Shown one piece after another: positions 5,786 through 21,195 of a stretch of DNA of 64,000 nucleotides. Both the position numbers and the translations under genes were made by a program. The stretch's first letter is position 1. Every line of letters begins with the position of its first letter. The notes under the pieces are model-generated. The model was not told the origin of the DNA and searched no databases. It was given only the letters and a program-made list of their open reading frames with translations. Origin of the DNA: Candidatus Eiseniibacteriota bacterium (GTDB lineage: Bacteria; Eisenbacteria; RBG-16-71-46; CAZAMP01); assembly GCA_965224245.1 (NCBI GenBank), contig OZ245046.1, positions 1,664,001 to 1,728,000 of the forward strand, written 5' to 3'.

Positions 5786-8635
5786 ATGAAGCGAGCGCCG
5801 ATGATCCGAACCCTCTACGTCGTCTTCTTCCTGTCGGGGATGTCGGCGCTCCTGTTCGAGACGCTGTGGTTCCGCCTGGCGGGGCTCACGTTCGGCAACG
5901 GCGTGTGGGCCAGCAGCATCGTGCTGGCCAGCTTCATGGCGGGCCTCGCACTCGGGAATGCGCTGGCGGCCCGCCACGGTGAGCGGATCGCCGATCCCGT
6001 GCGCGCCTATGCGGTGCTCGAGCTCCTGATCGGGGGCATCGGATTCGGGCTCGTGCTCGTGTTTCCGTTTCTGAACGTGCTCCTCTCCTCGATCTTCCAT
6101 CCGCTGGTCGGGAACTCGCTGGCGCTCAACCTGGTCCGCCTCGCCGGCGCGTTCGTGCTCATGCTCGTGCCTGCCTCGGCGATGGGCGCCACGCTGCCGC
6201 TCATGGTGAAGGGGCTCCGCAGCGCACGGACCCCGTTCGGACAGCGCCTGGGAATGCTCTACGGCTGCAACACGCTGGGCGCCGTGGCGGGTGCGCTGGC
6301 CGGCGAGATGGTGCTGATTCACCTGCTGGGGCTCCGGGGCTCCGGGCTCGTCGCCCTCGGCGCGAACGTCCTCGCGGCCGCGGTCGCGCTTCGCGTCGCC
6401 CGTCTCCTCCGGCGCGAGACCGGGCCCGACGCCGCGCGGCCGGACGCCGTCCAACCACGCCCGCTCACCGCCCGCAGTCGGGGCCTTCTGGCCGCCGCGT
6501 TCATGTCGGGCGCCGTTCTCCTGGCGCTCGAGGTCGTCTGGTTTCGATTCATGCTGCTGTTCACGTTCGGGACGAGCCTCGTGTTCTCGGTCATGCTCGC
6601 GGTGGTGCTGGCCGGCATCGGCATCGGGGGAACGGCGGCGTCCCGATGGCTCCGCGCACGGGCGCCCGACCGCGTGCTCCCCGCCGTCGCGTGCGTCTCC
6701 GGAGTGCTCGTGGTGGGTGGGTTCGCGCTCTTCGCGTCCCCCCAGCTCGGGGTCACGCTGAGCTACGTGCGCGACGACCTCGGCTGGGTGACCGCCGCGC
6801 GCGCGCTCGGGCTGATGTTCCCGGTGTCGCTCGCGTCGGGTGTCCTCTTCACGCTGATCGGCGCGGCTCTCCACGCGGAGATCGGCTCCGAGACGCGGTC
6901 GGCCGGTCTCCTGACGCTCTTCAACACGGTCGGCGCGATGCTGGGCGCGCTCCTGGCCGGGTTCGTCCTCCTGCCGCTCTGGGGCATGGAGCGCTCGTTC
7001 CTGGCGCTCGCCATCGCGTACGTCGCGGTCGCCGCGTTCACGCTCGTGCCCCACCCCACCGTGTTCCGACGCACGCGGGCGCGCGTCCTGGTGCCCGCGG
7101 TGATCGCGCTCGGGGCCAGCCTGGTCGCGTTTCCGTTCGGGGCGCTCGGCCGGCACGTGTTCCCGCGGATCGCCGAGTCCAGTGTGAACGGTCCCCACGA
7201 GATCGCGCTCGTGCGCGAGGGCCTCACCGAGACGATCCTCTACGTCCGCCGCGACAAGTTCGGCCTGCCGTTCTTCCACAAGCTCCTGACGAACGGCCAC
7301 GCGATGGCGGCGACCAACACGCACTCCCAGCACTACATGAAGCTCTACGTGTACCTGCCCCTCGCCGTGCATCCCGGGATGCGCGATGCGCTCCTGATCA
7401 GCTACGGGTGCGGTCAGACGGCCAAGGCGCTGACCGATACCGACGAGCTCGACCGCATCGACGTGGTCGACATCTCACGGGACATCCTCGAGGCCACCGA
7501 GATCGTGTTCGACGAGGTCGAGACGTCTCCACTCCGGGATCCCCGCGTGCACGTGTTCGTGGAGGACGGGCGGTTCTTCCTGCAGACGACGACGCGCACG
7601 TACGATCTGATCACCGGCGAGCCTCCGCCCCCGACCGCCGCCGGCACCGTCAACCTTTATTCGCGAGAGTACTTCCAGCTCATCCACGATCGCCTGAAGC
7701 CCGGTGGCATGGCCACGTACTGGCTTCCCCAGCACGCGCTCGACCAGGACGGCGCGCGCGCGATCATCCGCGCGTTCACCGACGTGTTCGAGGAGTCCTC
7801 GCTGTGGATCGGATGCGGGCAGGACTGGATGCTCCTGGGGGTGCGAGGCCCGCATGCGACCGTGAGCGAGGAGCGCTTCGGGCGCCAGTGGCGAAGTCCG
7901 GTCGTGGCGCCCATCCTCCAGGATCTCGGCTTCGAGTACCCCGAGCAGCTCGCCGCCTACTTCATCGCCGATCGTCCGGCCCTTCGCGACCTCGTGACCG
8001 GCACCGAGCCGGTCACCGACGATCGACCCCAGCGGCTCTCCCCGCCGGGGCCGGTGCGCCTCGAGTCGGCGTACGCGACGCTGATCGAGCCGGCCGCCGC
8101 GCGTGACCGGTTCGCCCGGAGCGACCACGTCCGGCGCCTCTTCCCCGACGGCGTACGGCGGCGCGGCGTGTCGTTCTTCGACTTCCGCTACGAGCTCCAC
8201 GACGGACTCTCGCCGTTCAAGGTGGGGCCACGCGGCGCGAGCGGCCTCGCGGGCGTCCACCACGTGATCACGGGCTCGCCGTTCCATACGCTCGTGCTGT
8301 GGCTTCTCGGATCGAGCGTGCGCGAGCAGCAGATCGTGGCCACCGTCGTCCAGGGCGGGGTCACCCACCCCGCGCTCGCGGCCAAGCTCGGTGACCTGGC
8401 CCTGGCGCGGCGCGACTTTCCGGCCGCGGTCGAGCACTACCGGATCGCGTGCGACGCCTTGCCCGATCAGGTGGAGCTTCTCCTGCGCCTCGTGCTGGCG
8501 CTGTGTCTGGCGGAGCGGCGAGACGAGGCCCAGGCGCTGGTGCACGCGCGCGCGGCCGTCGTCCGTCTCGGGGGACGTGAGGACTGGGTGTTCCTCGCGG
8601 GCACGTACGGGCTCCGGCTCCCGGGTCCGGGTTGA
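5786..8635 (+). CDS. Fused MFS-like membrane domain / spermidine synthase-like SAM-dependent transferase with C-terminal TPR-like region
   Basis: FFLSGMSALLFE..W, LYGCNTLGAVAG, repeated TM block, then LLISYGCGQT, DVVDIS, EDGRFFL, YDLITGEP, NLYSREYF...LKPGG. Confidence 0.85.
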   Translation: MKRAPMIRTLYVVFFLSGMSALLFETLWFRLAGLTFGNGVWASSIVLASFMAGLALGNALAARHGERIADPVRAYAVLELLIGGIGFGLVLVFPFLNVLLSSIFHPLVGNSLALNLVRLAGAFVLMLVPASAMGATLPLMVKGLRSARTPFGQRLGMLYGCNTLGAVAGALAGEMVLIHLLGLRGSGLVALGANVLAAAVALRVARLLRRETGPDAARPDAVQPRPLTARSRGLLAAAFMSGAVLLALEVVWFRFMLLFTFGTSLVFSVMLAVVLAGIGIGGTAASRWLRARAPDRVLPAVACVSGVLVVGGFALFASPQLGVTLSYVRDDLGWVTAARALGLMFPVSLASGVLFTLIGAALHAEIGSETRSAGLLTLFNTVGAMLGALLAGFVLLPLWGMERSFLALAIAYVAVAAFTLVPHPTVFRRTRARVLVPAVIALGASLVAFPFGALGRHVFPRIAESSVNGPHEIALVREGLTETILYVRRDKFGLPFFHKLLTNGHAMAATNTHSQHYMKLYVYLPLAVHPGMRDALLISYGCGQTAKALTDTDELDRIDVVDISRDILEATEIVFDEVETSPLRDPRVHVFVEDGRFFLQTTTRTYDLITGEPPPPTAAGTVNLYSREYFQLIHDRLKPGGMATYWLPQHALDQDGARAIIRAFTDVFEESSLWIGCGQDWMLLGVRGPHATVSEERFGRQWRSPVVAPILQDLGFEYPEQLAAYFIADRPALRDLVTGTEPVTDDRPQRLSPPGPVRLESAYATLIEPAAARDRFARSDHVRRLFPDGVRRRGVSFFDFRYELHDGLSPFKVGPRGASGLAGVHHVITGSPFHTLVLWLLGSSVREQQIVATVVQGGVTHPALAAKLGDLALARRDFPAAVEHYRIACDALPDQVELLLRLVLALCLAERRDEAQALVHARAAVVRLGGREDWVFLAGTYGLRLPGPG

Positions 8636-8643
8636 CGGACCGG

Positions 8644-9891
8644 TCACTCGTAGCGAAGCGCGTCGATCGGATTCAGGCGGGCGGCACGAATCGCGGGCAG
8701 GAGGCCGAACCCGACCCCCACCACCGAGCAGAAGACGAGCCCGATGACGGCCCACTCCACCGGGACGTTCGTCTCGAACGACGTGAAGACCGTCACCACG
8801 TTGCCCAGCCCGAAGCCGGCCATCACCCCGAGCGCCCCGCCGATGTTGCAGAGCACGATGGCCTCGAGGAGAAACTGCGTCATGATGTCGCGCGGCTTCG
8901 CGCCGAGCGATTTCCGGATGCCGATCTCCTTGGTGCGCTCGGTCACCGACACCAGCATGATGTTCATGATGCCGATGCCGGCAACGATGAGCGCGATCGT
9001 CCCGATCATGAACGCGGCCAGCTTCACCCCGCGCGTCGTTTGATTGAACTCGGCGATCAGGCTCTCGCTGCTGAAGACGTCGAAGTTGTCCTCTTCGCCC
9101 GGACGGACCCCCCGGGCGCGCCTCATGAGCTGTCGCGTCTCCTCCAGCGCGTCCGCGGCCAGCTCCGGCGTCTTGGCCCGAACCGTGATGTTCACCGACC
9201 GCGAGAACCCTCCCGGATCGACCATGCCGTACGTCTTCAGGTACCGCGTGATCGGGATCAGGACGTAATTGTCGTAGTTGCCTCCGAACGAGGACGTCTT
9301 GGAGTCGAACACCCCGATCACCTGGAACCTCCGGCCGTCCAGCCGCACCTCCTTGCCGATGGGATCGGTGAACGGGAAGAGCTTCTCGGCGATCGCCCAT
9401 CCGATGACCGCGACGCTCCGAGCGGTCTTCACGTCGAACTGCGAGAGGTTGCGACCCATCGCGACGTAGTGGGTGTTGTTGGCTGGATACTCGGGGGTCC
9501 CTCCGCAGATCTGGACGTTCGCGTTGGTGGCCTCGCCCTGGTACTCCATCACGAAGCCGTAGTCCCAGAGCTCCGCTCCCACCAGATCCACCGTGTCGAC
9601 CTGGTCGCGGATCAGCTGGGCGTGCTCGACCGTGATGGGTGGGCGCCGCCGGGCCTTGCGGCGCTCCTCGTCGCTGTTGAAGCCCCCCGCGGGCCACTTC
9701 TGCACCTGGAACACCTGCGTGCCGAGTACGCTCATCTCCTTCTCCATCGTGCCCTGGACGACCGAGATCGCCGTCATGACGGCGATGATGGACGCCACGC
9801 CGGCGACGATGCCCACCAGGGTCAGGAACGAGCGGAGCTTGTGGCTCTGGACGGCCCGGAGCGCCATCGCGAAGATGTCGAGTACCGGCAT
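8644..9891 (-). CDS. ABC transporter permease, MacB/FtsX family
   Basis: KLRSFLTLVGI, GIGIMNIMLVSVTERTKEIGIRKSLGA, PAIRAARLNPIDALRYE. Confidence 0.95.
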   Translation of the reverse strand: MPVLDIFAMALRAVQSHKLRSFLTLVGIVAGVASIIAVMTAISVVQGTMEKEMSVLGTQVFQVQKWPAGGFNSDEERRKARRRPPITVEHAQLIRDQVDTVDLVGAELWDYGFVMEYQGEATNANVQICGGTPEYPANNTHYVAMGRNLSQFDVKTARSVAVIGWAIAEKLFPFTDPIGKEVRLDGRRFQVIGVFDSKTSSFGGNYDNYVLIPITRYLKTYGMVDPGGFSRSVNITVRAKTPELAADALEETRQLMRRARGVRPGEEDNFDVFSSESLIAEFNQTTRGVKLAAFMIGTIALIVAGIGIMNIMLVSVTERTKEIGIRKSLGAKPRDIMTQFLLEAIVLCNIGGALGVMAGFGLGNVVTVFTSFETNVPVEWAVIGLVFCSVVGVGFGLLPAIRAARLNPIDALRYE

Positions 9892-9906
9892 TCGGCTAGG
9901 CCTCCA

Positions 9907-11157
9907 TCACTCGTGGCGCAGCGCGGCGATCGGGTCGAGCTTGGCGCCGCGGTAGGCCGGAACGAAGCCGGCCACGACGCCCACGCTCAGCGAGACCACG
10001 ATCGCGGTCAGGACGATGGGCAGTGACACGCTGGCCGGCATCACCGTGGCGTTGATGATCGCGGTCACGCCGACCGCGATCCCGGTGCCGATCAGTCCGC
10101 CCAGGAGACAGATCAACGCCGCCTCGAACAGGAACTGGAGCAGGATCACGTGTCGCTTGGCGCCGATGGCCTTGCGGATTCCGATCTCGCGCGTGCGCTC
10201 GGTGACCGACACGAACATGATGTTCATGACCCCGACCCCGCCCACGAACAGCGAGACCCCGGTGACGAGTAGTCCCACCAGCAGCACGACGCCCATGACG
10301 TTGTCGAACGCGCCCAGGAGCGAGTCGAGCTTGTTGATCGAGAAGTCGTCGGGCTCGGCGGGACGGAGGCCGCGTACCTTTCGCATCTCACCGACGACCA
10401 GGAACTCGAGGTCGGCGACGTCCTCGGGGCTGGGCGCCTTCACCGCGACGTCCACGTCCTGGCCGCGCCGTCCTCCGAAGGCCTTCACGAACGACGTGAT
10501 GGGGACGTAGACGAGTCGATCGAAGTTGGGGCCCCCGAAGCTCTGCCCCCCCTGCTTCTCCATGACCCCGATCACGCGACAGGTCAAGCGGCCGACCTTG
10601 ATCTCCTCGTTGATCGGGTTCGCCGAGCCGAAGAGGCCGTCGCACACGTCGCGGCCGATCACGCAGACCTTCTTCTTGTAGGTGACGTCGAACGCGGTCA
10701 GGAAGCGGCCGAGCTCGGGGCGAGCGCTCGACAGGGCGATCTGCTTGTCGGTGGTGCCGATGATCGAGACGCTCTCGATCGTCTCGGCTCCGACCTTCAC
10801 GTCGTACGAGCCCTGCATGCTGGGGTTCACGATGGCCTTGCCCAGGAGGTTCTCCTCCAGCAGACGGGCCTCGCGCAGCTCCAGGGGCGGACGGTTCCGG
10901 TACTCGAAGAAGTCGTTCATGATGATCCACGGCATCCGGGACACGTAGATGACGTCGGTTCCGATCGCCGAGAAGCTCTCGCGGAACGTGGACTGGAGCC
11001 CGTGCGCGGCGGTCAGGGTGCTGATCACGGCCACGATGCCGATGACGATGCCGAGCGTGGTCAGCGTCCCGCGAGCCTTGTTGGCGACGATGGCATCCAG
11101 GGCGATGGCCAAGGACTCGCGGACGTCCAGCGCCCAGCCGAGCGGCCGCCATCTCAT
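9907..11157 (-). CDS. ABC transporter permease, MacB/FtsX family (second copy)
   Basis: GVGVMNIMFVSVTERTREIGIRKAIGA, PAYRGAKLDPIAALRHE. The start could instead be 11181. Confidence 0.95.
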   Translation of the reverse strand: MRWRPLGWALDVRESLAIALDAIVANKARGTLTTLGIVIGIVAVISTLTAAHGLQSTFRESFSAIGTDVIYVSRMPWIIMNDFFEYRNRPPLELREARLLEENLLGKAIVNPSMQGSYDVKVGAETIESVSIIGTTDKQIALSSARPELGRFLTAFDVTYKKKVCVIGRDVCDGLFGSANPINEEIKVGRLTCRVIGVMEKQGGQSFGGPNFDRLVYVPITSFVKAFGGRRGQDVDVAVKAPSPEDVADLEFLVVGEMRKVRGLRPAEPDDFSINKLDSLLGAFDNVMGVVLLVGLLVTGVSLFVGGVGVMNIMFVSVTERTREIGIRKAIGAKRHVILLQFLFEAALICLLGGLIGTGIAVGVTAIINATVMPASVSLPIVLTAIVVSLSVGVVAGFVPAYRGAKLDPIAALRHE

Positions 11158-11170
11158 CGCGGTTCGCCCG

Positions 11171-11884
11171 TCATCGCGCATCCCTCGCGGTGTCGCTCTC
11201 GACGAGCCCGTCCCGGAGGCGGATCGTCCGGTGTGCGTGGCGGGCGATCGTGTCCTCGTGGGTGACCAGGAGGATCGTCTGCCCCGTGGCGTGGAGCTGG
11301 TCGAGGATGGTCATGATCTCGTCGCCGGTCTTGCTGTCGAGGTTTCCGGTCGGCTCGTCGGCCAGGATGATCGAGGGCTCGAAGACGAGCGCCCTGGCGA
11401 TCGCGACCCGCTGACGCTGACCTCCGGAGAGCTCCGCGGGGCGGTGGGCCGTCCGGTCGGTGAGCCCCACGCGCGCGATCGACTCCTCGGTGCGCCGGCG
11501 CCGCTCGCCGCGGGGCACGCCGCCGTAGATCAACGGGAGCTCGACGTTCTCGTACACGGTGGAGCGCGGCAGGAGATTGAACGTCTGGAACACGAAGCCG
11601 ATCCGGCGGTTCCGGATCTCGGCGAGACGCGACTCGGAGAGCTCGGCCACCATCTCACCCCCCAGCGAGTAGGTGCCGGACGTGGGGACGTCCAGGCATC
11701 CGATGATGTTCATCAGCGTCGACTTGCCCGAGCCCGAGGGACCCATGATGGCGACGTAGGCGTTGCGCTCGATGTCCAGAGAGACACCCCTGAGCGCGTG
11801 CACGCGCGTCTCGCCCAGGACGTACGTCTTGACCACGTCCCGGAGCGAGAGGGCGGTTGCGGTCGTCGTCGATGTCGTGCTCAT
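11171..11884 (-). CDS. ABC transporter ATP-binding protein (MacB/LolD type)
   Basis: Walker [38 protein letters not shown]. Confidence 0.97.
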
Positions 11885-11907
11885 GCCCGGGGCCTCCCGA
11901 TCGACGC

Positions 11908-13152
11908 TCAGGTCGGCTCGCCGCCGGCGTCGTTCTGGATCACGACGGCGGCACCGTTCTCGAGGTCGCGCGAGATGGCCCGGTAGCTCCCGCTCACGAC
12001 GACGTCCCCCTCGGTCAGTCCGCTCAGAATCTCGATGAGCTCATCGCTCTGAATGCCTGTCTCGACTTGCTTTGCCACCGCGTGGCCATCTTCGACGCAG
12101 AACACGATTTCCACGAACCCGTCCTCGTCGGGGGAGAAGCGGCCCTCGGCGTCCTCGCGGGACTCCCCCGCCACCCGGAGCTGATCGACGGTGCGCACGG
12201 CGACGCACTGGATGGGGACGCTGAGCGCCGAGTCGTTGGACCGGGTGAAGATGTCGGCGCTGGCGGTCATGCCCGGACGCAGCGCATCGACCGGATCGGT
12301 GACGCGGATCGTGACCTCGAACTCGGTCTTCTGCGTGGTGCCCTGGCTCCCCACGTTGGCCGAGTTGGCGATCTCGGAGACCGTGCCGGCCAGCACCCGA
12401 TCCCGGAGCGCGTCGACCTCGATCTCGGCCTGCTGTCCGATCTCGACCGAGACGATGTCGTTCTCGTCCACGTTGACCAGCGCCTCCATCTCGGACAGGT
12501 CGGCGATGACGAGGATCACGTCCTCCTGGAACTGCGAGCCGATGGCGATCTCGCCCTGCTCCTTGTTGAGGTCGCTGATCGTGCCCGCCATCGGGGCGTA
12601 GATCGTCGTCTTGGAGAGATCGTCCCGGGCCTGCTTCAGCGCCGCTCTGGCCTGCTCGACCTGATCCACGGCCGACGCGTGGCGCGCCTTCTCGACGAGA
12701 TAGGCGGACTCCGCGGCGTCGAATGCGGCCTGGGTCTCGACGCTGCGCGACATGAGCTCGCGCGAGCGGGCGTACTCCTTCTCCAGCCGGATGAGGTTCT
12801 CCAGCACGAGGCTCGCGTTCGCCTGCGCCGAGCGCACGTTGGCCTCGGCGCTCTCGACGGCGGCCAGATAGCGTTCGCGGTCGAGCTCCACCAGGAAGGC
12901 GCCGGCCTCGACCCACTCTCCCTCCTCGACGGCCAGCTTGGTGATCTTGGCGCTCACGTCGCCACTGATCTTGACCTGGGTGTGGGGCTGGATGCGCCCG
13001 GTGGCGTTCACGGTCTGGACGATCTTCTCGCGGGTCACGGTCGCGGTCTCGACGGACATCGGTCCGTCGCCGTCGCGCTTGAGCGCGAACGTGGCCCCCA
13101 CCGCACCCAGCAGGACGATGGGGATCGCGATCCAGAGAGCCTTCTTGTTCAT
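11908..13152 (-). CDS. Efflux periplasmic adaptor (MacA/HlyD membrane fusion protein)
   Basis: N-terminal TM, ATGRIQP, coiled-coil hairpin, [33 protein letters not shown]. Confidence 0.92.
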
Positions 13153-13323: not shown

Positions 13324-15111
13324 TCAGGCGGCGACGTCGTCGGCGTCGGGCTCGCGCCCCTCGTCGAGGGGCAGCGGGAGGACGGCGGTGAACGTGGATC
13401 CGACGCCGACCTCGCTCTCGACCTCGATCGAGCCCCCCATGAGGTCGGTCAGGTGCCGGCAGATGGCGAGCCCCAGCCCGGTTCCGCCGAACTCCCGGGT
13501 CGTGCTGCGGTCCACCTGACTGAACTCCTCGAAGATGCTCGTCAGGCGTTCGGGCGGAATGCCCACGCCGGTGTCGGCGATCGCGATCGACACCGACCGG
13601 GGGGTCTCCACCACGCCTACGGTGACCTGCCCGGCCGGCGTGAACTTGATCGCGTTCCCGACCAGGTTCACGACGATCTGCCGGATGCGAGCCACGTCCC
13701 CCACCCTCGGCCCGAGCGGAGCGGACGCCCAGGCCAGCGTGAGCCCGACGTCCTTCCCGTGGGCCAGCGGGGCGAGCACCTGGCGGACCTCCTCCAGCAG
13801 CGTGCGGAGGTCGAACGGGCGGGGATCCAGCTCGAGCTTGCCCGACTCGATGCGCGCGATGTCGAGCACGTCGCTGATCACCTCCAGGAGCGAGCGGCCG
13901 GAAGTCTGCAGGAGGTCCACGTACTCGGTCTGCTCCTCGGACAGCTCGGTGTCGCGCAGGAGCTGGACCATGCCCATGACGCCGTTCAACGGGGTCCGCA
14001 GCTCGTGACTCATCGTGGCCAGGAACTGCGTCTTCGCGATGGCCGCGCTCCGGGCCCGGACGAGCGCGTCCTGCAGGCTCGACGCCATCAGGTTGAACGC
14101 CGCGCCGAGCTCGCCGACCTCGTCGCGGGACGTGACGTCGACGCGGTGGTCCAGTTCACCGCCACCGAACCGGGTCACCGCGCGATGCAGCCGCCGGATG
14201 GGCTGGCCGATCCGGCCCGCGAGCCACGAGCTGACGCCGACCGCGAGAAGGAGGCAGAGCGCCCCGGCGGCGATCACGGCCATGCGGAACGCCACGAGCG
14301 CCCCGCGGGTCCCGTCCACGGGACGGAACAGGACGGCGCGATGCCCGCCGCCGGACACGTCGACAGCGAGGCCGCGGTGAGGCCGCCCGCCGAGGTCGAA
14401 GTCGACGATGGGGATGGGCCCCGCCGCGGACGGGGTCGGGCCGTCATCGCGGCTCCGCGCGTGCAGGTCGGCGGCCGCGAACGACGCCGCCGTCCACGTG
14501 CGCGAGCAGGCCACCGGCCCCTCGGGGGCGAGGAGCACGACGTCGCTGCCGGAGACGTCGGCGATCTCGCGGGCCCATGTGTCGTCGATGCGATCGCCGA
14601 GCGCGAGGATCCCGACCACCTGCCGTCCTCCGAGGACCGGCGCGACCGCGACGTGGTGGAGGGCGTCCCCGTGCGTCCAGATCGACACCGTCTCCTCGCC
14701 GCGCATCGCGGCCGCCACCGCGTGGCGCGCGGCGAGCGAGCGGCCCGGGGACAGCACGCCGCTCGCGTCCGACAGCACACGCCCCGTGGGGTCGATGAGG
14801 ACCAGGAGATCGCCGTCCACGACACTCCCCAGCTCCTCGCCCAGATGCGCCACGGTCTCGGGGTCGACGCCCTCGATGCCCAGGGTCGCCTTCAGAAACG
14901 GGATCTCGGAGGTCGACCGGGCACGCGCCCGCAGGAGCGCGTCGCGCAACTCGAGCCAGCGATCGTAGCCCCGCCGCGCGCGCTCGAGGCTGGCCACGAT
15001 CTCGTCCTCGGCCAGGCGGTCCACCAGGGTCGACGCACCGAACACCGACAGCAGGATGAACACCACCGAGACCGCGGACGTCCCCCAGAACAGGCGTGCC
15101 TGCAGACTCAC
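13324..15111 (-). CDS. Membrane sensor histidine kinase (periplasmic Cache-like, HAMP, HisKA, HATPase_c)
   Basis: Two TM segments, [18 protein letters not shown]-box [41 protein letters not shown] start at 15111. No receiver domain. Confidence 0.93.
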
Positions 15112-15116
15112 GCGCC

Positions 15117-16211
15117 TCACCGGTACTTGCCCTCGTAGGGCTTGCCGAACTTGTTGGGATGCTCGGCGATCTTCCGGTCCTCGACGACCGTGAGCTCCAG
15201 CACGCGGTGGGTCTCGGGCCCCACGACGATCTCGCGGCGGGTCTCCGGCCCGAACTCGTGCCACGTCCGGAGCCGATACGTCCCCGCGGGCACGCACGGC
15301 ACCACGAACACGCCCCGCTGGTCGGTCGTGCTGAAGAGATCGTTCTCGAGCACGAGGATGCTGGCGGACATCTGTGGATGGATGTTGCAGTACACCTTGA
15401 CCAGCCCGCTCTCCTCGAACGTGACCGAGCCCGTGTGGCCCGGGTTGTAGATCCCCAGGTCGAACGGGGCGACCCGGCTGAGCGAGAACGCGTTGTGAAA
15501 GATCGTGTCGTCGTTGGGAAACTCGACGGTCGTCCCCGCGACGATGGGAAGCACCCGAGGCGAGAACTGGCGGTGCCTCTGGGACAGGACGCGCGTGTGC
15601 ACTGGCACGCTCGGGCGGAGGCTCCGGTCCACGGGCTCGAGGAACACGACCACGCCGCGCGGGTCCGAGGTCTCGGTGCCATCGGTCTTCACGACGCGCA
15701 CGGTGCCCGACACGATCCCGTCTCGATCGGGAAAGATCCCGGACGGACGTTCGCCGTCCCGGAACCGGACGTGACAGTCGACGCAGCTGGCCCGGATGTC
15801 GTGGACGACCGCATCCACGATCTCACGATCACCGGCCGACGCGGCGGCGCCGAGCAGCTCGGCCCCGGACGTGATCCGCGCGATCAGCACCCGGAGGACC
15901 TCCGGGCGATCGCCGTCCAGGATCTCCTCCAGCATCGGCAGATGCCCGAACGACGTTCCCAGCGCCTGCGCCACCGGAGCGATCTCCTCCAGCCGTTCCT
16001 CGGCGAGAAGCTGCTCGACGTCGGCGAACTCGTCGGCGATGCCGAACATGAGCTGCTTGGTGGCGTCGCTGGTCCGGAGCGGGCGTTCGGAACGGTCGGC
16101 GACGGCGCGGGTCGGGGCCGCCGGGGGTCGGGGATCCGCCGCGGAGTTCGCGAGTGTCCACGTGAGGCTCGAGACGAGCAGACCGACGGCGAGCAGGGCG
16201 GGACGTGGCAT
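15117..16211 (-). CDS. Exported cytochrome c'-like (CxxCH) domain fused to a cupredoxin and a carboxypeptidase-regulatory-like domain
   Basis: Signal peptide; helical domain ending SCVDCHVRFR; then QFSPRVL..AGTTVEFPNDDTIFHNAFS and YCNIHPQM (type 1 Cu-like H...CxxHxxM); VPAGTYRLRTWH. Confidence 0.8.
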   Translation of the reverse strand: MPRPALLAVGLLVSSLTWTLANSAADPRPPAAPTRAVADRSERPLRTSDATKQLMFGIADEFADVEQLLAEERLEEIAPVAQALGTSFGHLPMLEEILDGDRPEVLRVLIARITSGAELLGAAASAGDREIVDAVVHDIRASCVDCHVRFRDGERPSGIFPDRDGIVSGTVRVVKTDGTETSDPRGVVVFLEPVDRSLRPSVPVHTRVLSQRHRQFSPRVLPIVAGTTVEFPNDDTIFHNAFSLSRVAPFDLGIYNPGHTGSVTFEESGLVKVYCNIHPQMSASILVLENDLFSTTDQRGVFVVPCVPAGTYRLRTWHEFGPETRREIVVGPETHRVLELTVVEDRKIAEHPNKFGKPYEGKYR

Positions 16212-16440
16212 GCAGGACTCCCGGTTCAGCGCCCGCCCGGCCGGTGCGGGACGTTCGAGAGCCCCTGGCGGATGCCGGACCTCTCACCGTGGGGTATCGG
16301 CTCGGCCCGTGGCATCTGAACGCTCGGCCGGCTCGAGGGCGAACGGCGAACGGGACCACAAGATCCCGCGCGGCCGGCCGATGGATCTGGAAAGAAAGCC
16401 GACCCGATTCGACTCGCCCACTCGATCCGGGAGAGCCCCG

Positions 16441-17787
16441 TTGACCACACGACGCCTTCCGGTCGCCGGCGCGGCGACCCTTCTCGCACTCTCGGCGCTG
16501 ATGGCGCCCTTTCCCCGGACCGCGGCCGCCGACGACGGAGCGGCCGCCGCGAAGACTCGCACCGAGCCTGCGGACACCCGCACCGAGCCCGCGGACACGG
16601 CACCGGAGGTTCCGGCTCCCGTGGACCTTCGTGACGATCCCCTGCCATCGCTCGTGGCCGAGCCGGCCCCCGGCGAGGACGGAATCTCGCCGTGGTACGA
16701 CCGGCTCGACATCACGGGCTTCGCCGCGGCGGGGTTCCTCGACTCCGGGCCCGCCGGAGATCGTCCTGAGGGCGGCTTCGCCGTCAAGGAGTCGGCGCTC
16801 TTCCTGGAGGCCGACGTCTGGGAGGGCACGTCGGTCTTCTTCGAGGTTCAGGTGAACCCGCTCCTTCAGGACGCCCGCATCCAGTTCCAGACCGGCGAGG
16901 TGTACGCCGCCTTCCGGGACGTGTGGCGGAGCGATCGCGGCGACCGGCTCGGGTTCAAGGTCGGGCGGATCGACATCCCGTTCGGCGAGGAGTACCTGTG
17001 GGACGACACGCAGGACAACCCGCTGATCTCACACTCGGTTGGCTTTCCCTGGCTCACCGACGAGGGCGTGGCCGCGTTCGGACGGCTTCGCGGCGTCGGC
17101 TGGGTGGCCGCCATCACCGATGGCACGATGGAGCGGAGCGTCGACGAGAACGTCTCGAAGGCGCTGAACCTGAAGCTCTTCGGTCGTCCGTGGCGACCTC
17201 TCTACCTGAGCGCGAGCGCGATGAAGAACGACGAGACCTCCGGCAGCGCGCTCTATCTCGGGGAGACGTGCTTCCAGCCGGTGGGCGCGCCCGTGCACGG
17301 ACGTGACGTCACGTCCACCGCCGGGTTCAGCCCGAGCGAGCGTGTCGAGGCCTCGCTGTACGAGGTGACCGCCACCGTCTCGGGTCCCAATGCCTCGGAG
17401 CTGTGGCTCACGCTCGGCCAGGCGTGGGTCGACGACGCCGAGGACACCTACGACCGCTCGCTGACCTGGTTCACGGTGCAGGCGCGCACGAACCTACCCG
17501 GACACCGCGCGTACGTGGCCGCACGACACAGCGAGTTCGGGACGTACGACGCCGATGAGGGCTACCAGATCGGCGGTGGCTTCCTGACCGACGGACGTCG
17601 CGCGTTCGGCTACGACACGCGCCGCCTCGGTCGGACCTCGGCCGGATTCGGCTGGATCGTGAACCCGCGGGTCACGATGCGGGTGGAGGTCGGTCGTGAT
17701 CGGTTCGAGCTGATCGACGCCTCGCCGCTCGAGCCGGACAACGGCGACCGGACGTTCACGGCCGCGGAGATGGTCGTGACCTTCTAG
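16441..17787 (+). CDS. Putative outer-membrane beta-barrel / porin
   Basis: Signal peptide ending TAAA, amphipathic strands, KVGRIDIPFGEEY, C-terminal Phe (EMVVTF). TTG start preceded by GGAG; alternative ATG at 16381. Confidence 0.75.
   Translation: MTTRRLPVAGAATLLALSALMAPFPRTAAADDGAAAAKTRTEPADTRTEPADTAPEVPAPVDLRDDPLPSLVAEPAPGEDGISPWYDRLDITGFAAAGFLDSGPAGDRPEGGFAVKESALFLEADVWEGTSVFFEVQVNPLLQDARIQFQTGEVYAAFRDVWRSDRGDRLGFKVGRIDIPFGEEYLWDDTQDNPLISHSVGFPWLTDEGVAAFGRLRGVGWVAAITDGTMERSVDENVSKALNLKLFGRPWRPLYLSASAMKNDETSGSALYLGETCFQPVGAPVHGRDVTSTAGFSPSERVEASLYEVTATVSGPNASELWLTLGQAWVDDAEDTYDRSLTWFTVQARTNLPGHRAYVAARHSEFGTYDADEGYQIGGGFLTDGRRAFGYDTRRLGRTSAGFGWIVNPRVTMRVEVGRDRFELIDASPLEPDNGDRTFTAAEMVVTF
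16555..16596 (+). repeat. Two copies of a 21-bp coding tandem repeat (TRTEPAD x2)
   Basis: ACTCGCACCGAGCCTGCGGAC / ACCCGCACCGAGCCCGCGGAC in the porin N-terminal linker. Confidence 0.8.
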
Positions 17788-18576: not shown

Positions 18577-21195
18577 ATGCCGGATCGGGACATCACCACG
18601 TCGGAGCCGGGCTCACGCCCCGCGTCCCTCGTCGCGCTCATGCTGGTGTTCTTCGCCTCGGGCGCCGCCGCGCTGATCTACGAGGTTCTGTGGCTGAAGG
18701 AGCTCGGGCGACTGTTCGGGGTCACCGCGCACTCGGCCGCCGTGACCCTCAGCGTGTTCTTCCTCGGGCTCTCGGCCGGCGGTGCGGTCTGGGGTCGCCG
18801 CGCTGCCGGCGTACGCTCTCCGCTTCGCACCTATGCGGCGCTCGAGATCGGCATCGCGATCACGGCGTGTCTCTACTTCGGGCTCGTCGATCTGTTCCAC
18901 CTGATCTACGGGCCACTGCTCGCCAAGACGGGCTCCAGCGGCACCCTGGCCACGGGGATCAAGCTGGCGCTCGCCACGATCGTGCTGTTCCCACCCGCGT
19001 TCTTCATGGGCGGGACGTTGCCCGTGATGGCACAGCTCCTGGTCAGGCGGGCCGACGAGCTCGGGCGACGCGCGAGCCTCCTCTATGCGGTGAACACGAT
19101 CGGCGCCGCCTCCGGGGCGTTTCTGGCGGGCTTCCACCTGCCCCGGGTCCTCGGCTACGCGGGAGCGTACTCGGTGGCCATCGGAATCAACGTCGTGGCG
19201 GCCGCGACGACGTTCGCCTGGAGTCGGCGCTGGCCGGCTCCACCGCCCGTCGTGCCCGAGCCCCGACCGACCGCGCCGGGTCACCCGGCCGAGCCCGGAG
19301 GGTTCTCCCTTCGCGCGCTCGGAGTCGTCGCGGCGGTGTCCGGCTTCGTAACCCTCGGCCTCGAAGTACTCTGGACGCACATGTTCGCGCAGATTCTGCA
19401 GAACTCCGTCTACACCTTCTCGGCCGTGCTGACGCTCTTCCTGGGAGCGCTGGCGCTGGGCTCGGTCCTCGCCGGCCGGCTCTGCCGCCTTCGGACCGTG
19501 TCGCCCCCACTGGTGCTGGGGGCGCTGATGATCGTGTCCGGTCTCCTGGTCGCATGGACGCCGCCGACCCTCTTCGCGCTCAGCTCGGGGCTCGACGAGC
19601 TCGGCCGCGGCCTCGGCTGGAACGCGTACGTCTCGCGGGTGTTCGTGGTCGTGGGCGCGGTGCTCGTGGTTCCGGTGACCGTGATGGGCGCCGTCTTCCC
19701 CTACCTGATGAAGATCGGCGAGCGCGGCATGGTCAGCGCCGGACGCACGGTCGGCTCGCTCGCCTCGATCAACACCGCCGCCGCGATCGTGGGCTCCGTC
19801 GTGGCCGGCTTCGTGCTCCTCGAGCGGTGGGGAACCTGGACGAGCATCCGCGCCCTCGCCGTCACCTACCTCGTCCTGGGCGCCGTCGTCGTCCGCGGGC
19901 GCTCGCGCGCGGCGCTCGCCGTGCGTGCCCTGGGCATCGCCGGGGCCGTGGTGTTCGGGCTCCTCGTGCGATGGGACGATCTCACCGACGTCCGGCTCGA
20001 CGCGGCGCGTCACGAGACGGTCGTCCGGACCTGGCAGGGACCGCACGGCACGGTCTCGGTCGTGGACGCGGACGGGAGCCTCCGGCTGAAGGTGAACAAC
20101 ACGTACACGCTCGGAAGCAGCCTGTCGCACCTGAACCAGCGACTCCAGTCTCAGATCCCGCTGCTGCTCCACCCCGACCCGCGATCGGTCTTCTACCTGG
20201 GTCTGGGGACCGGCGTCACCGCGAGCGGCGCGCTCGCGTTTCCGGTGGACGAGGTCGTGGTCTGCGAGCTCAACGGCGACGTGATCGAGGCCAGCCGGAC
20301 CTGCTTCGCACCCTGGCTGGAAGGCCTCTTCGGCGACCCCCGGGTGTCGGTCCTGGAGGAGGACGGGCGGGTGTACCTGGCCACCTCGACCGACACCTTC
20401 GACGTCGTGATCGCGGACATCTTCCTGACCTACCGAGCCGGCGTCGGCGCCCTCTACACGCGCGAGCACTTCGAGGCCGTGCGCGACCGCCTCGCGCCCG
20501 GGGGGCTCTTCGCACAGTGGCTTCCGATGTTCGATCTCACCGAGGAGGAGTTCGGCATCATCGTACGCACGATGCTGGAGGTGTTCCCGGAGGTCACGCT
20601 GTGGCGCCGGGGCTTCTCGCCGAAGTTCCCGGTACACCTGCTTCTCGGGCACGAGTCGACCGCGCGGCTGGATGTGACCCGGTTCCGCGACGGTCTCGAC
20701 GCCCTCGACGCGTCGGGGGTGCTGGGCCGGAACGTCTGGATTCAGAACATCCCGCTGGCCGCGTACGTGGCCAACCTCGGGCGGCTCCGCGACGCGTTCC
20801 ACGGCTACGCCGTCAGCACCGACGACCGGGTGCCGCTCGAGTACCTGGCCCCGGTGAGCGATCGGGACGCCGAGGTCGGACGCGCCACCGTGCTCGCGTG
20901 GGACGCGCTGGTCGCCTTCGAGGCGGGCCTCGTGGCCGCGTCGCCCCCGGAGGTCGACCCGTACCTCGCGTCGGTCCCGCCGGACATGCGGCGTCAGGTA
21001 CGCGCCGGTCTGGCGTTCTACGGCCACGAGACCCATCGGCGGATGAGGGATTCCGAGGCGGCGGCGCGATACCTGGTGCGCTACCGCGAGCTCGTGGCCG
21101 CGAGCGGCGGGGCCGGGGCCCGTTCGCCCGCGGCCGGGCCGTCCGCCGACGACGAGGGTTCGGGGGAAGATTCCGGCCCCGGGGCACCGGACTGA
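18577..21195 (+). CDS. Fused MFS-like membrane domain / spermidine synthase-like protein (second copy)
   Basis: FFASGAAALIYEVLW, LYAVNTIGAA, FYLGLGTGVTA, VCELN, EDGRVYL, FDVVIAD, LYTREHF...LAPGG.FAQWLP. Confidence 0.87.
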   Translation: MPDRDITTSEPGSRPASLVALMLVFFASGAAALIYEVLWLKELGRLFGVTAHSAAVTLSVFFLGLSAGGAVWGRRAAGVRSPLRTYAALEIGIAITACLYFGLVDLFHLIYGPLLAKTGSSGTLATGIKLALATIVLFPPAFFMGGTLPVMAQLLVRRADELGRRASLLYAVNTIGAASGAFLAGFHLPRVLGYAGAYSVAIGINVVAAATTFAWSRRWPAPPPVVPEPRPTAPGHPAEPGGFSLRALGVVAAVSGFVTLGLEVLWTHMFAQILQNSVYTFSAVLTLFLGALALGSVLAGRLCRLRTVSPPLVLGALMIVSGLLVAWTPPTLFALSSGLDELGRGLGWNAYVSRVFVVVGAVLVVPVTVMGAVFPYLMKIGERGMVSAGRTVGSLASINTAAAIVGSVVAGFVLLERWGTWTSIRALAVTYLVLGAVVVRGRSRAALAVRALGIAGAVVFGLLVRWDDLTDVRLDAARHETVVRTWQGPHGTVSVVDADGSLRLKVNNTYTLGSSLSHLNQRLQSQIPLLLHPDPRSVFYLGLGTGVTASGALAFPVDEVVVCELNGDVIEASRTCFAPWLEGLFGDPRVSVLEEDGRVYLATSTDTFDVVIADIFLTYRAGVGALYTREHFEAVRDRLAPGGLFAQWLPMFDLTEEEFGIIVRTMLEVFPEVTLWRRGFSPKFPVHLLLGHESTARLDVTRFRDGLDALDASGVLGRNVWIQNIPLAAYVANLGRLRDAFHGYAVSTDDRVPLEYLAPVSDRDAEVGRATVLAWDALVAFEAGLVAASPPEVDPYLASVPPDMRRQVRAGLAFYGHETHRRMRDSEAAARYLVRYRELVAASGGAGARSPAAGPSADDEGSGEDSGPGAPD

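Follow-up and report, generated by a model that had tools for sequence, protein, structure and literature searches.

Gene organization of the heme-copper locus

The window, i.e. the whole stretch of DNA that was analyzed, comprises 64,000 nucleotides from the genome of a Candidatus Eiseniibacteriota bacterium (contig OZ245046.1). Within it we found a three-gene locus that encodes an exported heme c and type 1 copper fusion protein, a sensor histidine kinase, and an outer-membrane porin. The best reading of this gene set is trans-envelope redox sensing by a metalloprotein co-sensor, to which we give about even chances of being right. The genes are arranged as follows (positions in the window; aa, amino acids; ORF, open reading frame):

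13324 to 15111, minus strand: sensor histidine kinase P0002, 595 aa, composed of a transmembrane segment, dCache_3, a second transmembrane segment, HAMP, HisKA (H369) and HATPase, with no receiver domain
15117 to 16211, minus strand: fusion gene P0001, a 364-aa ORF for the exported heme c and type 1 copper protein
16212 to 16380, no strand: divergent intergenic region of 169 nucleotides between the fusion gene and the barrel gene
16381 to 17787, plus strand: outer-membrane porin P0003 with a predicted OprP/Porin_O_P-like fold, start codon uncertain within 16381-16501

According to the ORF map of the window, 5 nucleotides separate the stop codon of the fusion gene (15119-15117) from the GTG start of the Cache/HAMP kinase gene (15111), just as an earlier note on this DNA had stated. 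For the barrel gene, the start at 15796 called in the ORF list was rejected, as it would overlap the fusion gene, and the ATG at 16381 was taken. The intergenic region shows no sigma-70 promoter consensus; a terminator consensus was not found either, nor was any repeat that would point to an inversion of the barrel gene.

Since profiles of the fusion protein, the heme domain, the barrel, and the sensor domain each match the 6.9-Mb genome once, always at this locus, chance adjacency of the genes was rejected. An assembly artefact was likewise rejected as the cause of the divergent layout, because contigs from two runs of one sample (possibly the source sample, and not biologically independent) span 13639/13640-18700 with zero differences. 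The three-gene locus is real, conserved, and uncharacterized.

Copper and heme sites of the fusion protein

The fusion protein comprises the following elements:

15759 to 16067, minus strand: class II four-helix mono-heme c domain, residues 49-151, b562/NaxL-like, with CxxCH at nucleotides 15785-15771, Met55 at 16049-16047 and an invariant Arg140
15348 to 15599, minus strand: type 1 cupredoxin domain, residues 205-288, with ligands H239, C275, H278 and M281
15183 to 15347, minus strand: putative CarboxypepD_reg-like beta-sandwich, residues 289-343 (PF13620 at E 8.7e-5, below the cut-off; secondary structure)
15123 to 15161, minus strand: C-terminal motif H351-x-N-K354-x-G-x-x-Y-x-x-K-Y363

A homolog search gave 374 matches, the best 120 of which were compared; 91 sequences of at least 290 aa, query included, form the full-length set, and the remaining 29 are shorter. 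The earlier note had described a helical CxxCH domain joined to a cupredoxin, and the sequence bears this out with CVDCH at 143-147 followed by the four copper ligands. Both the CxxCH motif and the copper ligands are kept in all 91 full-length sequences, as are H351, K354, and Y363 of the terminal motif. In the shorter homologs the copper ligands are kept throughout, and CxxCH in 2 of the 29.

Judged by eye, the N terminus resembles a signal peptide. The AlphaFold2 model (mean predicted local distance difference test score, pLDDT, 87.8; predicted template modeling score 0.82) shows four helices bundled at 49-150, with beta domains thereafter. For residues 205-288 the matches are type 1 cupredoxins (Foldseek E 4e-8, Z score up to 14.0), and the segment combines their fold with the His/Cys/His/Met ligand set. 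The beta-sandwich is probably completed by strands 165-193 of the model. The source genome has two matches to PF01578 over the cut-off, i.e. cytochrome c maturation genes, which suggests that the host is able to attach heme c.

The heme domain is a class II cytochrome c, a four-helix bundle with CxxCH near its C-terminal end, and this part of the earlier description, which had named the class II cytochrome c' arrangement, stands. The c' type probably does not. We compared 33 divergent heme domains sharing 10-27% identity with that of the window, and the invariant columns are M55, R140, C143, C146, and H147; in the full-length fusion homologs Met55 is kept in 89 of 91. The best PDB matches of the heme-domain profile are engineered CxxCH variants of cytochrome b562 (E 1.6e-6), and in the end-to-end profile alignment Met55 falls on Met7 of cytochrome b562. 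Range offsets in the structural search, which are not residue-level alignments, agree with this for b562 chains, where M55 corresponds to residue 7; in NaxL C32M (6r6n_A; Z 14.1, root-mean-square deviation 2.1, 105 aligned residues) it corresponds to residue 32 and in cytochromes c' to about residue 16. The Pfam family PF01322 gave 19.7 and 23.5 bits on the window protein versus a cut-off of 26.5.

The heme of cytochrome b562 is low-spin and six-coordinate, with Met7 and His102 as axial ligands (PMC7864044); in gas-binding cytochrome c', a non-ligating Leu16 at the distal position governs gas binding (PMC5390784). Since the invariant Met55 aligns with the axial Met7, a His/Met six-coordinate heme with Met55 as distal ligand is predicted, which we consider quite likely. 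By sequence, the domain is thus probably closer to cytochrome b562, with a helix A methionine in register with Met7 of b562, than to gas-binding cytochrome c', and the analogy to NO- and CO-binding cytochromes c' drawn in the earlier note is weakened by a methionine in 33 of 33 domains where the gas binders have Leu16.

The heme-domain profile also finds standalone single-domain class II cytochromes and two- or three-domain repeats (P0149, P0153-P0158, P0151, P0162). Among the best 150 representatives matched, 48 have a cupredoxin and 64 are short mono-heme proteins.

The three genes stay together in other genomes

A scan of species-representative genomes yielded 417 relatives, of which the best 79 loci were examined; all neighborhood counts are from these unless said otherwise. 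With the window proteins as queries, a sensor homolog was found in 77 of the 79 loci (the other two are contig ends) and a barrel homolog in 43, numbers that profiles built later from the same loci reproduce by construction. A barrel of any kind is present in 64. The fusion itself occurs in 34 loci, 32 of them intact, from Planctomycetota, Marinimicrobia/Fidelibacterota, KSB1, Latescibacterota, Gemmatimonadota, and Verrucomicrobiota. The barrel gene lies upstream on the same strand in 33 of the 34 and the sensor gene directly downstream in 33, the misses (L037, L093) being contig ends, and the fusion and sensor domain matches are 3-18 nucleotides apart. The co-localization of the three genes, on which the earlier proposal depended, is therefore found well beyond this genome. 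The divergent barrel is a true feature of the window, but not of the system: since the barrels of 33/33 fusion loci are co-directional, the window is the exception. Divergent layouts do occur in non-fused versions (L101, L071). The latter locus (L071:3742-8621) has two cupredoxin copies in a divergent pair with a cyclase receptor, and L047:6420-13191 shows two barrel-cupredoxin pairs in tandem and then one kinase.

Among 60 relatives of the source genome no match covers the heme domain, and a sensor stands beside 18 of the 19 best cupredoxin matches (one of them, L016, from the unpublished genome G053).

In the window kinase, dCache_3, HAMP, HisKA, and HATPase all score above the Pfam cut-offs, two hydrophobic segments are present, and H369 and the N, G1, and G2 boxes are intact. 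The earlier note had called it an orphan. This holds here, as none of the 55 receiver-domain matches of the genome is inside the window and the nearest lies about 28 kb from the kinase, but not in the relatives: of the 33 fusion-linked sensors, 27 have a histidine-kinase domain and 6 of those are hybrids, and regulator genes are adjacent in L022, L024, and L028. In the other 6 the sensor is cut or frameshifted, or its kinase domain is not among the matches listed.

Such tight linkage bears on an explanation in which dCache binds a small molecule directly, the porin and the heme-copper protein being a co-regulated uptake unit, or a one-electron catalytic unit that makes or removes the ligand, without touching the receptor. 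dCache domains do often bind small ligands directly (PMC8534201). Further, no cupredoxin-receptor fusion, nor any other longer cupredoxin fusion, was found among 1255 candidates of 638-2000 aa, in what was a weak search; the apparent barrel-heme and heme-HAMP fusions P0135, P0200, and P0211 were not counted, as they seem to arise from read-through, by frameshift, of an operon with the same gene order. On the other hand, the adjacency of cupredoxin and receptor is near-fixed, few pocket residues of the sensor domain are invariant, and a type 1 site without a substrate pocket suits an electron carrier rather than an enzyme. We regard this explanation as quite improbable.

Outputs and heme proteins are exchanged around a cupredoxin-receptor core

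This locus represents one form of a module that is widespread and consists of a porin, a cupredoxin of the 'methylamine utilization protein' type, and a dCache_3-HAMP receptor with swappable outputs. In the 77 scanned sensors the input half is kept, while the outputs vary among histidine kinases, SpoIIE phosphatase (19), Ser/Thr kinase (11), GGDEF, and cyclase; receptors of Pseudomonadota have EAL/GGDEF outputs. The name of the cupredoxin family comes from plasmid records, whose proteins share 30-40% identity with the window cupredoxin. An EAL protein follows the cupredoxin in all three plasmid regions viewed, its N terminus matching the sensor profile (E 1e-18 to 1e-29), and two of the three have DUF3034 and a truncated hemoglobin. 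In a Comamonas plasmid (L100:4958-5908) the position ahead of the cupredoxin-EAL pair is occupied by a DUF4394 protein. We rejected a role in a methylamine pathway as the default reading. Products of mauAB were seen neither in three annotated regions nor in 80 scanned neighbor ORFs (whole genomes were not searched).

The heme proteins are exchanged as well. Next to the fused mono-heme version (34/79), a pentaheme cytochrome is found in 20/79 loci. All 21 Myxococcota loci have a barrel preceding the cupredoxin, in 20 of them the pentaheme cytochrome gene is located between the cupredoxin and a SpoIIE receptor, and RsbW-like and STAS genes occur in 19. The pentaheme protein, as in L057 and 19 other Myxococcota loci (e.g. 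L061:8594-9769), is conserved, c554-like, and has a C-terminal beta domain, in a partner-switching operon; MauG-like peroxidase genes are present in 9 of the 21 loci. The Myxococcota barrel is BBP2-like and distantly related to that of the window (probability 90, E 1.5e-6). A third version emerged from an even draw of 301 Pseudomonadota genomes, 25 of which have DUF3034. Within about 6 kb of it we found a truncated hemoglobin in 25/25 loci, a cupredoxin in 20, a sensor in 18, and both of the latter in 17. Most of these hemoglobins have a signal- or lipoprotein-like N terminus (by eye). In these loci (L132-L156) the DUF3034 barrel adjoins the group 1 truncated hemoglobin, and 4 of the 25 have neither cupredoxin nor sensor within 6 kb. 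DUF3034 and the window barrel share no detectable relationship (probability 1.2%). Counted together, the fused mono-heme, pentaheme, and globin versions amount to three unrelated heme folds with the same cupredoxin-receptor core, i.e. the heme slot is interchangeable.

The globins bring to the fore another explanation, sensing of gas or of reactive nitrogen or oxygen species, in which the heme binds NO, O2 or CO at a labile or non-ligating Met55 and the change in ligation is passed via the cupredoxin to the dCache receptor. An exported truncated hemoglobin in every DUF3034 locus speaks for it, as do cytochromes c' and NaxL among the top fold matches of the heme domain and the Pfam family Cytochrom_C_2, which matches 26 of the 33 heme domains, versus 4 for Cytochrom_B562 at E ≤ 0.1. 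NaxLS is, moreover, termed an electron/NO shuttle in a bioRxiv preprint (10.64898/2026.02.25.707902). Yet the methionine at the b562 axial position is invariant, a gas-binding heme would not need the invariant type 1 copper site, and 64 of the 79 loci have a barrel although gases cross membranes without a porin. We consider gas sensing unlikely.

Barrel and sensor domain

P0003 has no Pfam match (E ≤ 1), to PF07396 of the OprP/OprO phosphate porins or otherwise, and no NCBIfam match. Its model (pLDDT 91.8) resembles OprP best and general trimeric porins next, and predicts a 16-stranded OprP-like barrel (2o4v_A: Z 27.4, root-mean-square deviation 3.2, 312 aligned residues, 12% identity; atlas 0.97). 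A conduit of the MtrAB type was rejected: the barrel is OprP-sized, MtrB reaches a Z score of only 11.8, and no multiheme conduit is encoded at the locus. Among the conserved residues of the barrel, Gly, Asp, Glu, Arg, and Ser prevail.

This composition matters for a third explanation, sensing of copper or another metal. Here, the porin would admit copper or a metal complex, and the apo or holo state of the cupredoxin would be reported to the receptor, the heme merely setting the oxidation state of the copper. Cupredoxin and receptor are indeed the universal core, 25 of the 79 loci have them with no heme gene beside them, and the invariant C-terminal His351 and the acidic barrel residues could bind metal. 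A heavy-metal P-type ATPase is encoded downstream in one locus, L028. But no His, Met or Cys is invariant in the barrel or in the sensor domain, the scanned neighbors (a selection of 80 ORFs) show no recurring copper-resistance genes, and the outputs are cyclic di-GMP, partner switching, and Ser/Thr kinases instead of CusR/CopR-type regulators. Metal sensing thus appears improbable.

A model for redox sensing across the envelope

The earlier note had left redox, gas, and metal sensing side by side. Co-localization supports trans-envelope sensing as such, and this support is one of genomic context; redox change is the property common to the three heme types. In our model, the porin would let an oxidant, a reductant or a redox-active small molecule enter the periplasm from outside. 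The fused heme c, with its predicted low-spin His/Met ligation, would serve as an outward-facing antenna that exchanges single electrons with that molecule or with periplasmic carriers, and it would equilibrate with the type 1 copper site, provided that both heme and copper are loaded. The body of the cupredoxin would then dock on the dCache_3 domain of the receptor, and its Cu(I)/Cu(II) state would switch the HAMP-kinase unit, which in turn would phosphorylate a regulator encoded elsewhere. The cupredoxin is the likelier docking part because it, and not the heme, constantly accompanies the receptor. A complex prediction for the fusion protein (45-364) with heme and the sensor domain (28-274) scored 0.02 and 0.01 versus a mark of 0.32, which is no evidence either way.

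Genes located past cognate regulators back the redox reading weakly, in two lineages: EB_dh and a diheme cytochrome c in L022/L039, and cytochrome b and a multiheme cytochrome c in L028. The former cluster possibly represents regulated targets. Past the LuxR-type regulator (L022:5045-8800, L039:12697-16372, similar in L025), it comprises an EB_dh lipoprotein, the diheme cytochrome c, a second, small lipoprotein, and a protein in which an N-terminal CxxCH precedes a barrel-like sequence. The last has no Pfam match and presumably resembles Cyc2-type cytochrome-porins. The MauG-like genes of nine Myxococcota loci are a further weak hint of redox function.

Several observations weigh against redox sensing. 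Regarding the heme, the Pfam preference for Cytochrom_C_2 has been given above, the c' structure 2ccy_B (Z 13.2) ties with the top match in the structural search, and the cytochrome c' of R. molischianum has a non-ligating Met16 at this position. L035 has CxxCQ instead of CxxCH, and the fusion of L034 is frameshifted. One or two label changes suffice for the fused forms on a tree of the cupredoxin portion, so that the 34 fusion loci are not independent and may stem from a single event. In Pseudomonadota the globin tracks the barrel better than it does the cupredoxin or the sensor, and truncated hemoglobins are usually gas binders. Because no heme gene was found beside 25 loci (10 with a P0003-type barrel, 14 of the Acidobacteriota type, and L082), the heme is accessory and may be encoded elsewhere or unnecessary; Bac_globin had no match in five genomes of such loci, whose completeness is unknown. 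The P-type ATPase of L028 belongs here, too.

More broadly, we tentatively suggest a widespread, as yet undescribed class of sensing in which a dedicated dCache receptor reads a periplasmic blue-copper redox probe, and in which hemes, porins, and outputs are plug-in parts. That heme modules and porins set what the probe listens to, and outputs the response, is a similarly tentative idea. The fusion would be its compact form, with heme hard-wired to copper, and of all versions the simplest to reconstitute.

Comparison with known systems

The heme domain resembles cytochrome b562 and engineered cb562 (3tol, 2bc5) in its four-helix bundle of about 105 aa, with an N-terminal Met and a C-terminal CxxCH in register with Met7 and His102. 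Unlike cb562 it is a covalent form that occurs in nature, it is joined to a cupredoxin, and it is associated with a receptor; its ligation is a prediction. Cytochrome c556, a class IIb low-spin cytochrome, is also a close known type. The class II fold with terminal CxxCH is shared with cytochrome c' (PF01322; AXCP) and with NaxL of Kuenenia NaxLS (6r6n), but in cytochrome c' the distal residue is no ligand and the chain is longer (125-131 aa), and wild-type NaxL, going by the entry title C32M, has Cys at position 32, where the window domain has its invariant Met.

The cupredoxin shares its fold (Z 12.6-14.0), the His-Cys-His-Met set, and a C-x2-H-x2-M loop of amicyanin length with amicyanin, plastocyanin, and the Nmar1307-type cupredoxins of N. 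maritimus (1aac, 7zqe, 5fc9, C-terminal domain of 6hbe). It differs in lying within a beta-sandwich with a conserved tail, in its fusion to heme, and in being linked to a receptor rather than to a dehydrogenase or photosystem.

The Pseudomonadota operons of cupredoxin, DUF3034, group 1 truncated hemoglobin, and EAL have a homologous cupredoxin, which we take to be MauL-like, and a homologous sensor domain, and in L102 and L138 their genes, too, run barrel, heme, cupredoxin, receptor. They differ in having a DUF3034 barrel, a globin instead of a cytochrome, and a cyclic di-GMP output. No characterization of these operons was found in the literature searches made. Searches on the module and related terms found no description of it either, most subscription journals and bioRxiv supplements being out of reach.

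In the proposed way of working, the module is most like LuxP-LuxQ and TorT-TorS, in which a periplasmic partner is read by the periplasmic domain of a kinase; LuxQ likewise is a double PDC/Cache (PMC8534201). Their partners, however, are ligand-binding proteins, whereas here a cytochrome and cupredoxin take the place of the periplasmic binding protein fold, with a dedicated porin and swappable outputs. Because its partner is a redox metalloprotein, the module is not a member of these systems. The Uet cluster of Tenderiales and porin-cytochrome conduits also group barrel, cytochromes, and cupredoxin; Uet is a multiheme conduit, according to 10.1101/2022.05.06.490989, while the locus studied here has no such conduit, an OprP-sized porin, and a receptor as endpoint.

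Surrounding genes

Two large membrane-protein ORFs flank the region on the plus strand (5786-8635 and 18577-21195); going by the sequence, we take them to be fused MFS (major facilitator superfamily)/spermidine-synthase-like. On the strand of the kinase gene and 171 nucleotides past its stop begins an operon (8644-13152, minus strand), presumably for a MacAB-like ABC (ATP-binding cassette) exporter with adaptor, ATPase, and two permeases, which was not seen as a conserved neighbor in other fusion loci. A short 21-nucleotide tandem repeat at 16549-16600 encodes a TEPAD-like linker ahead of the barrel domain.

Implications

The earlier note read the system correctly, and probably erred in the type of heme and in taking the divergent layout for a feature. 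New here are the natural cb562-like heme-copper fusion and the counts for an interchangeable heme slot. By its sequence, the fusion would be a natural single-chain electron-transfer pair from heme c to type 1 copper, with a heme domain that resembles engineered cytochrome cb562. Versions of the module exist in the culturable Polyangium, Caballeronia, and Novosphingobium, and it can be tested there and in vitro. If redox sensing holds true, several families with no assigned function would gain one at once, namely the cupredoxins named 'methylamine utilization protein', the barrels of DUF3034, the exported truncated hemoglobins of group 1, and a subfamily of dCache_3; it would also account for a direct readout of the redox potential outside the cytoplasm in many bacteria. 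Since related gene sets place unrelated heme proteins in the same slot, our analysis suggests that bacteria have a so far undescribed means of sensing the redox state beyond the cytoplasm.

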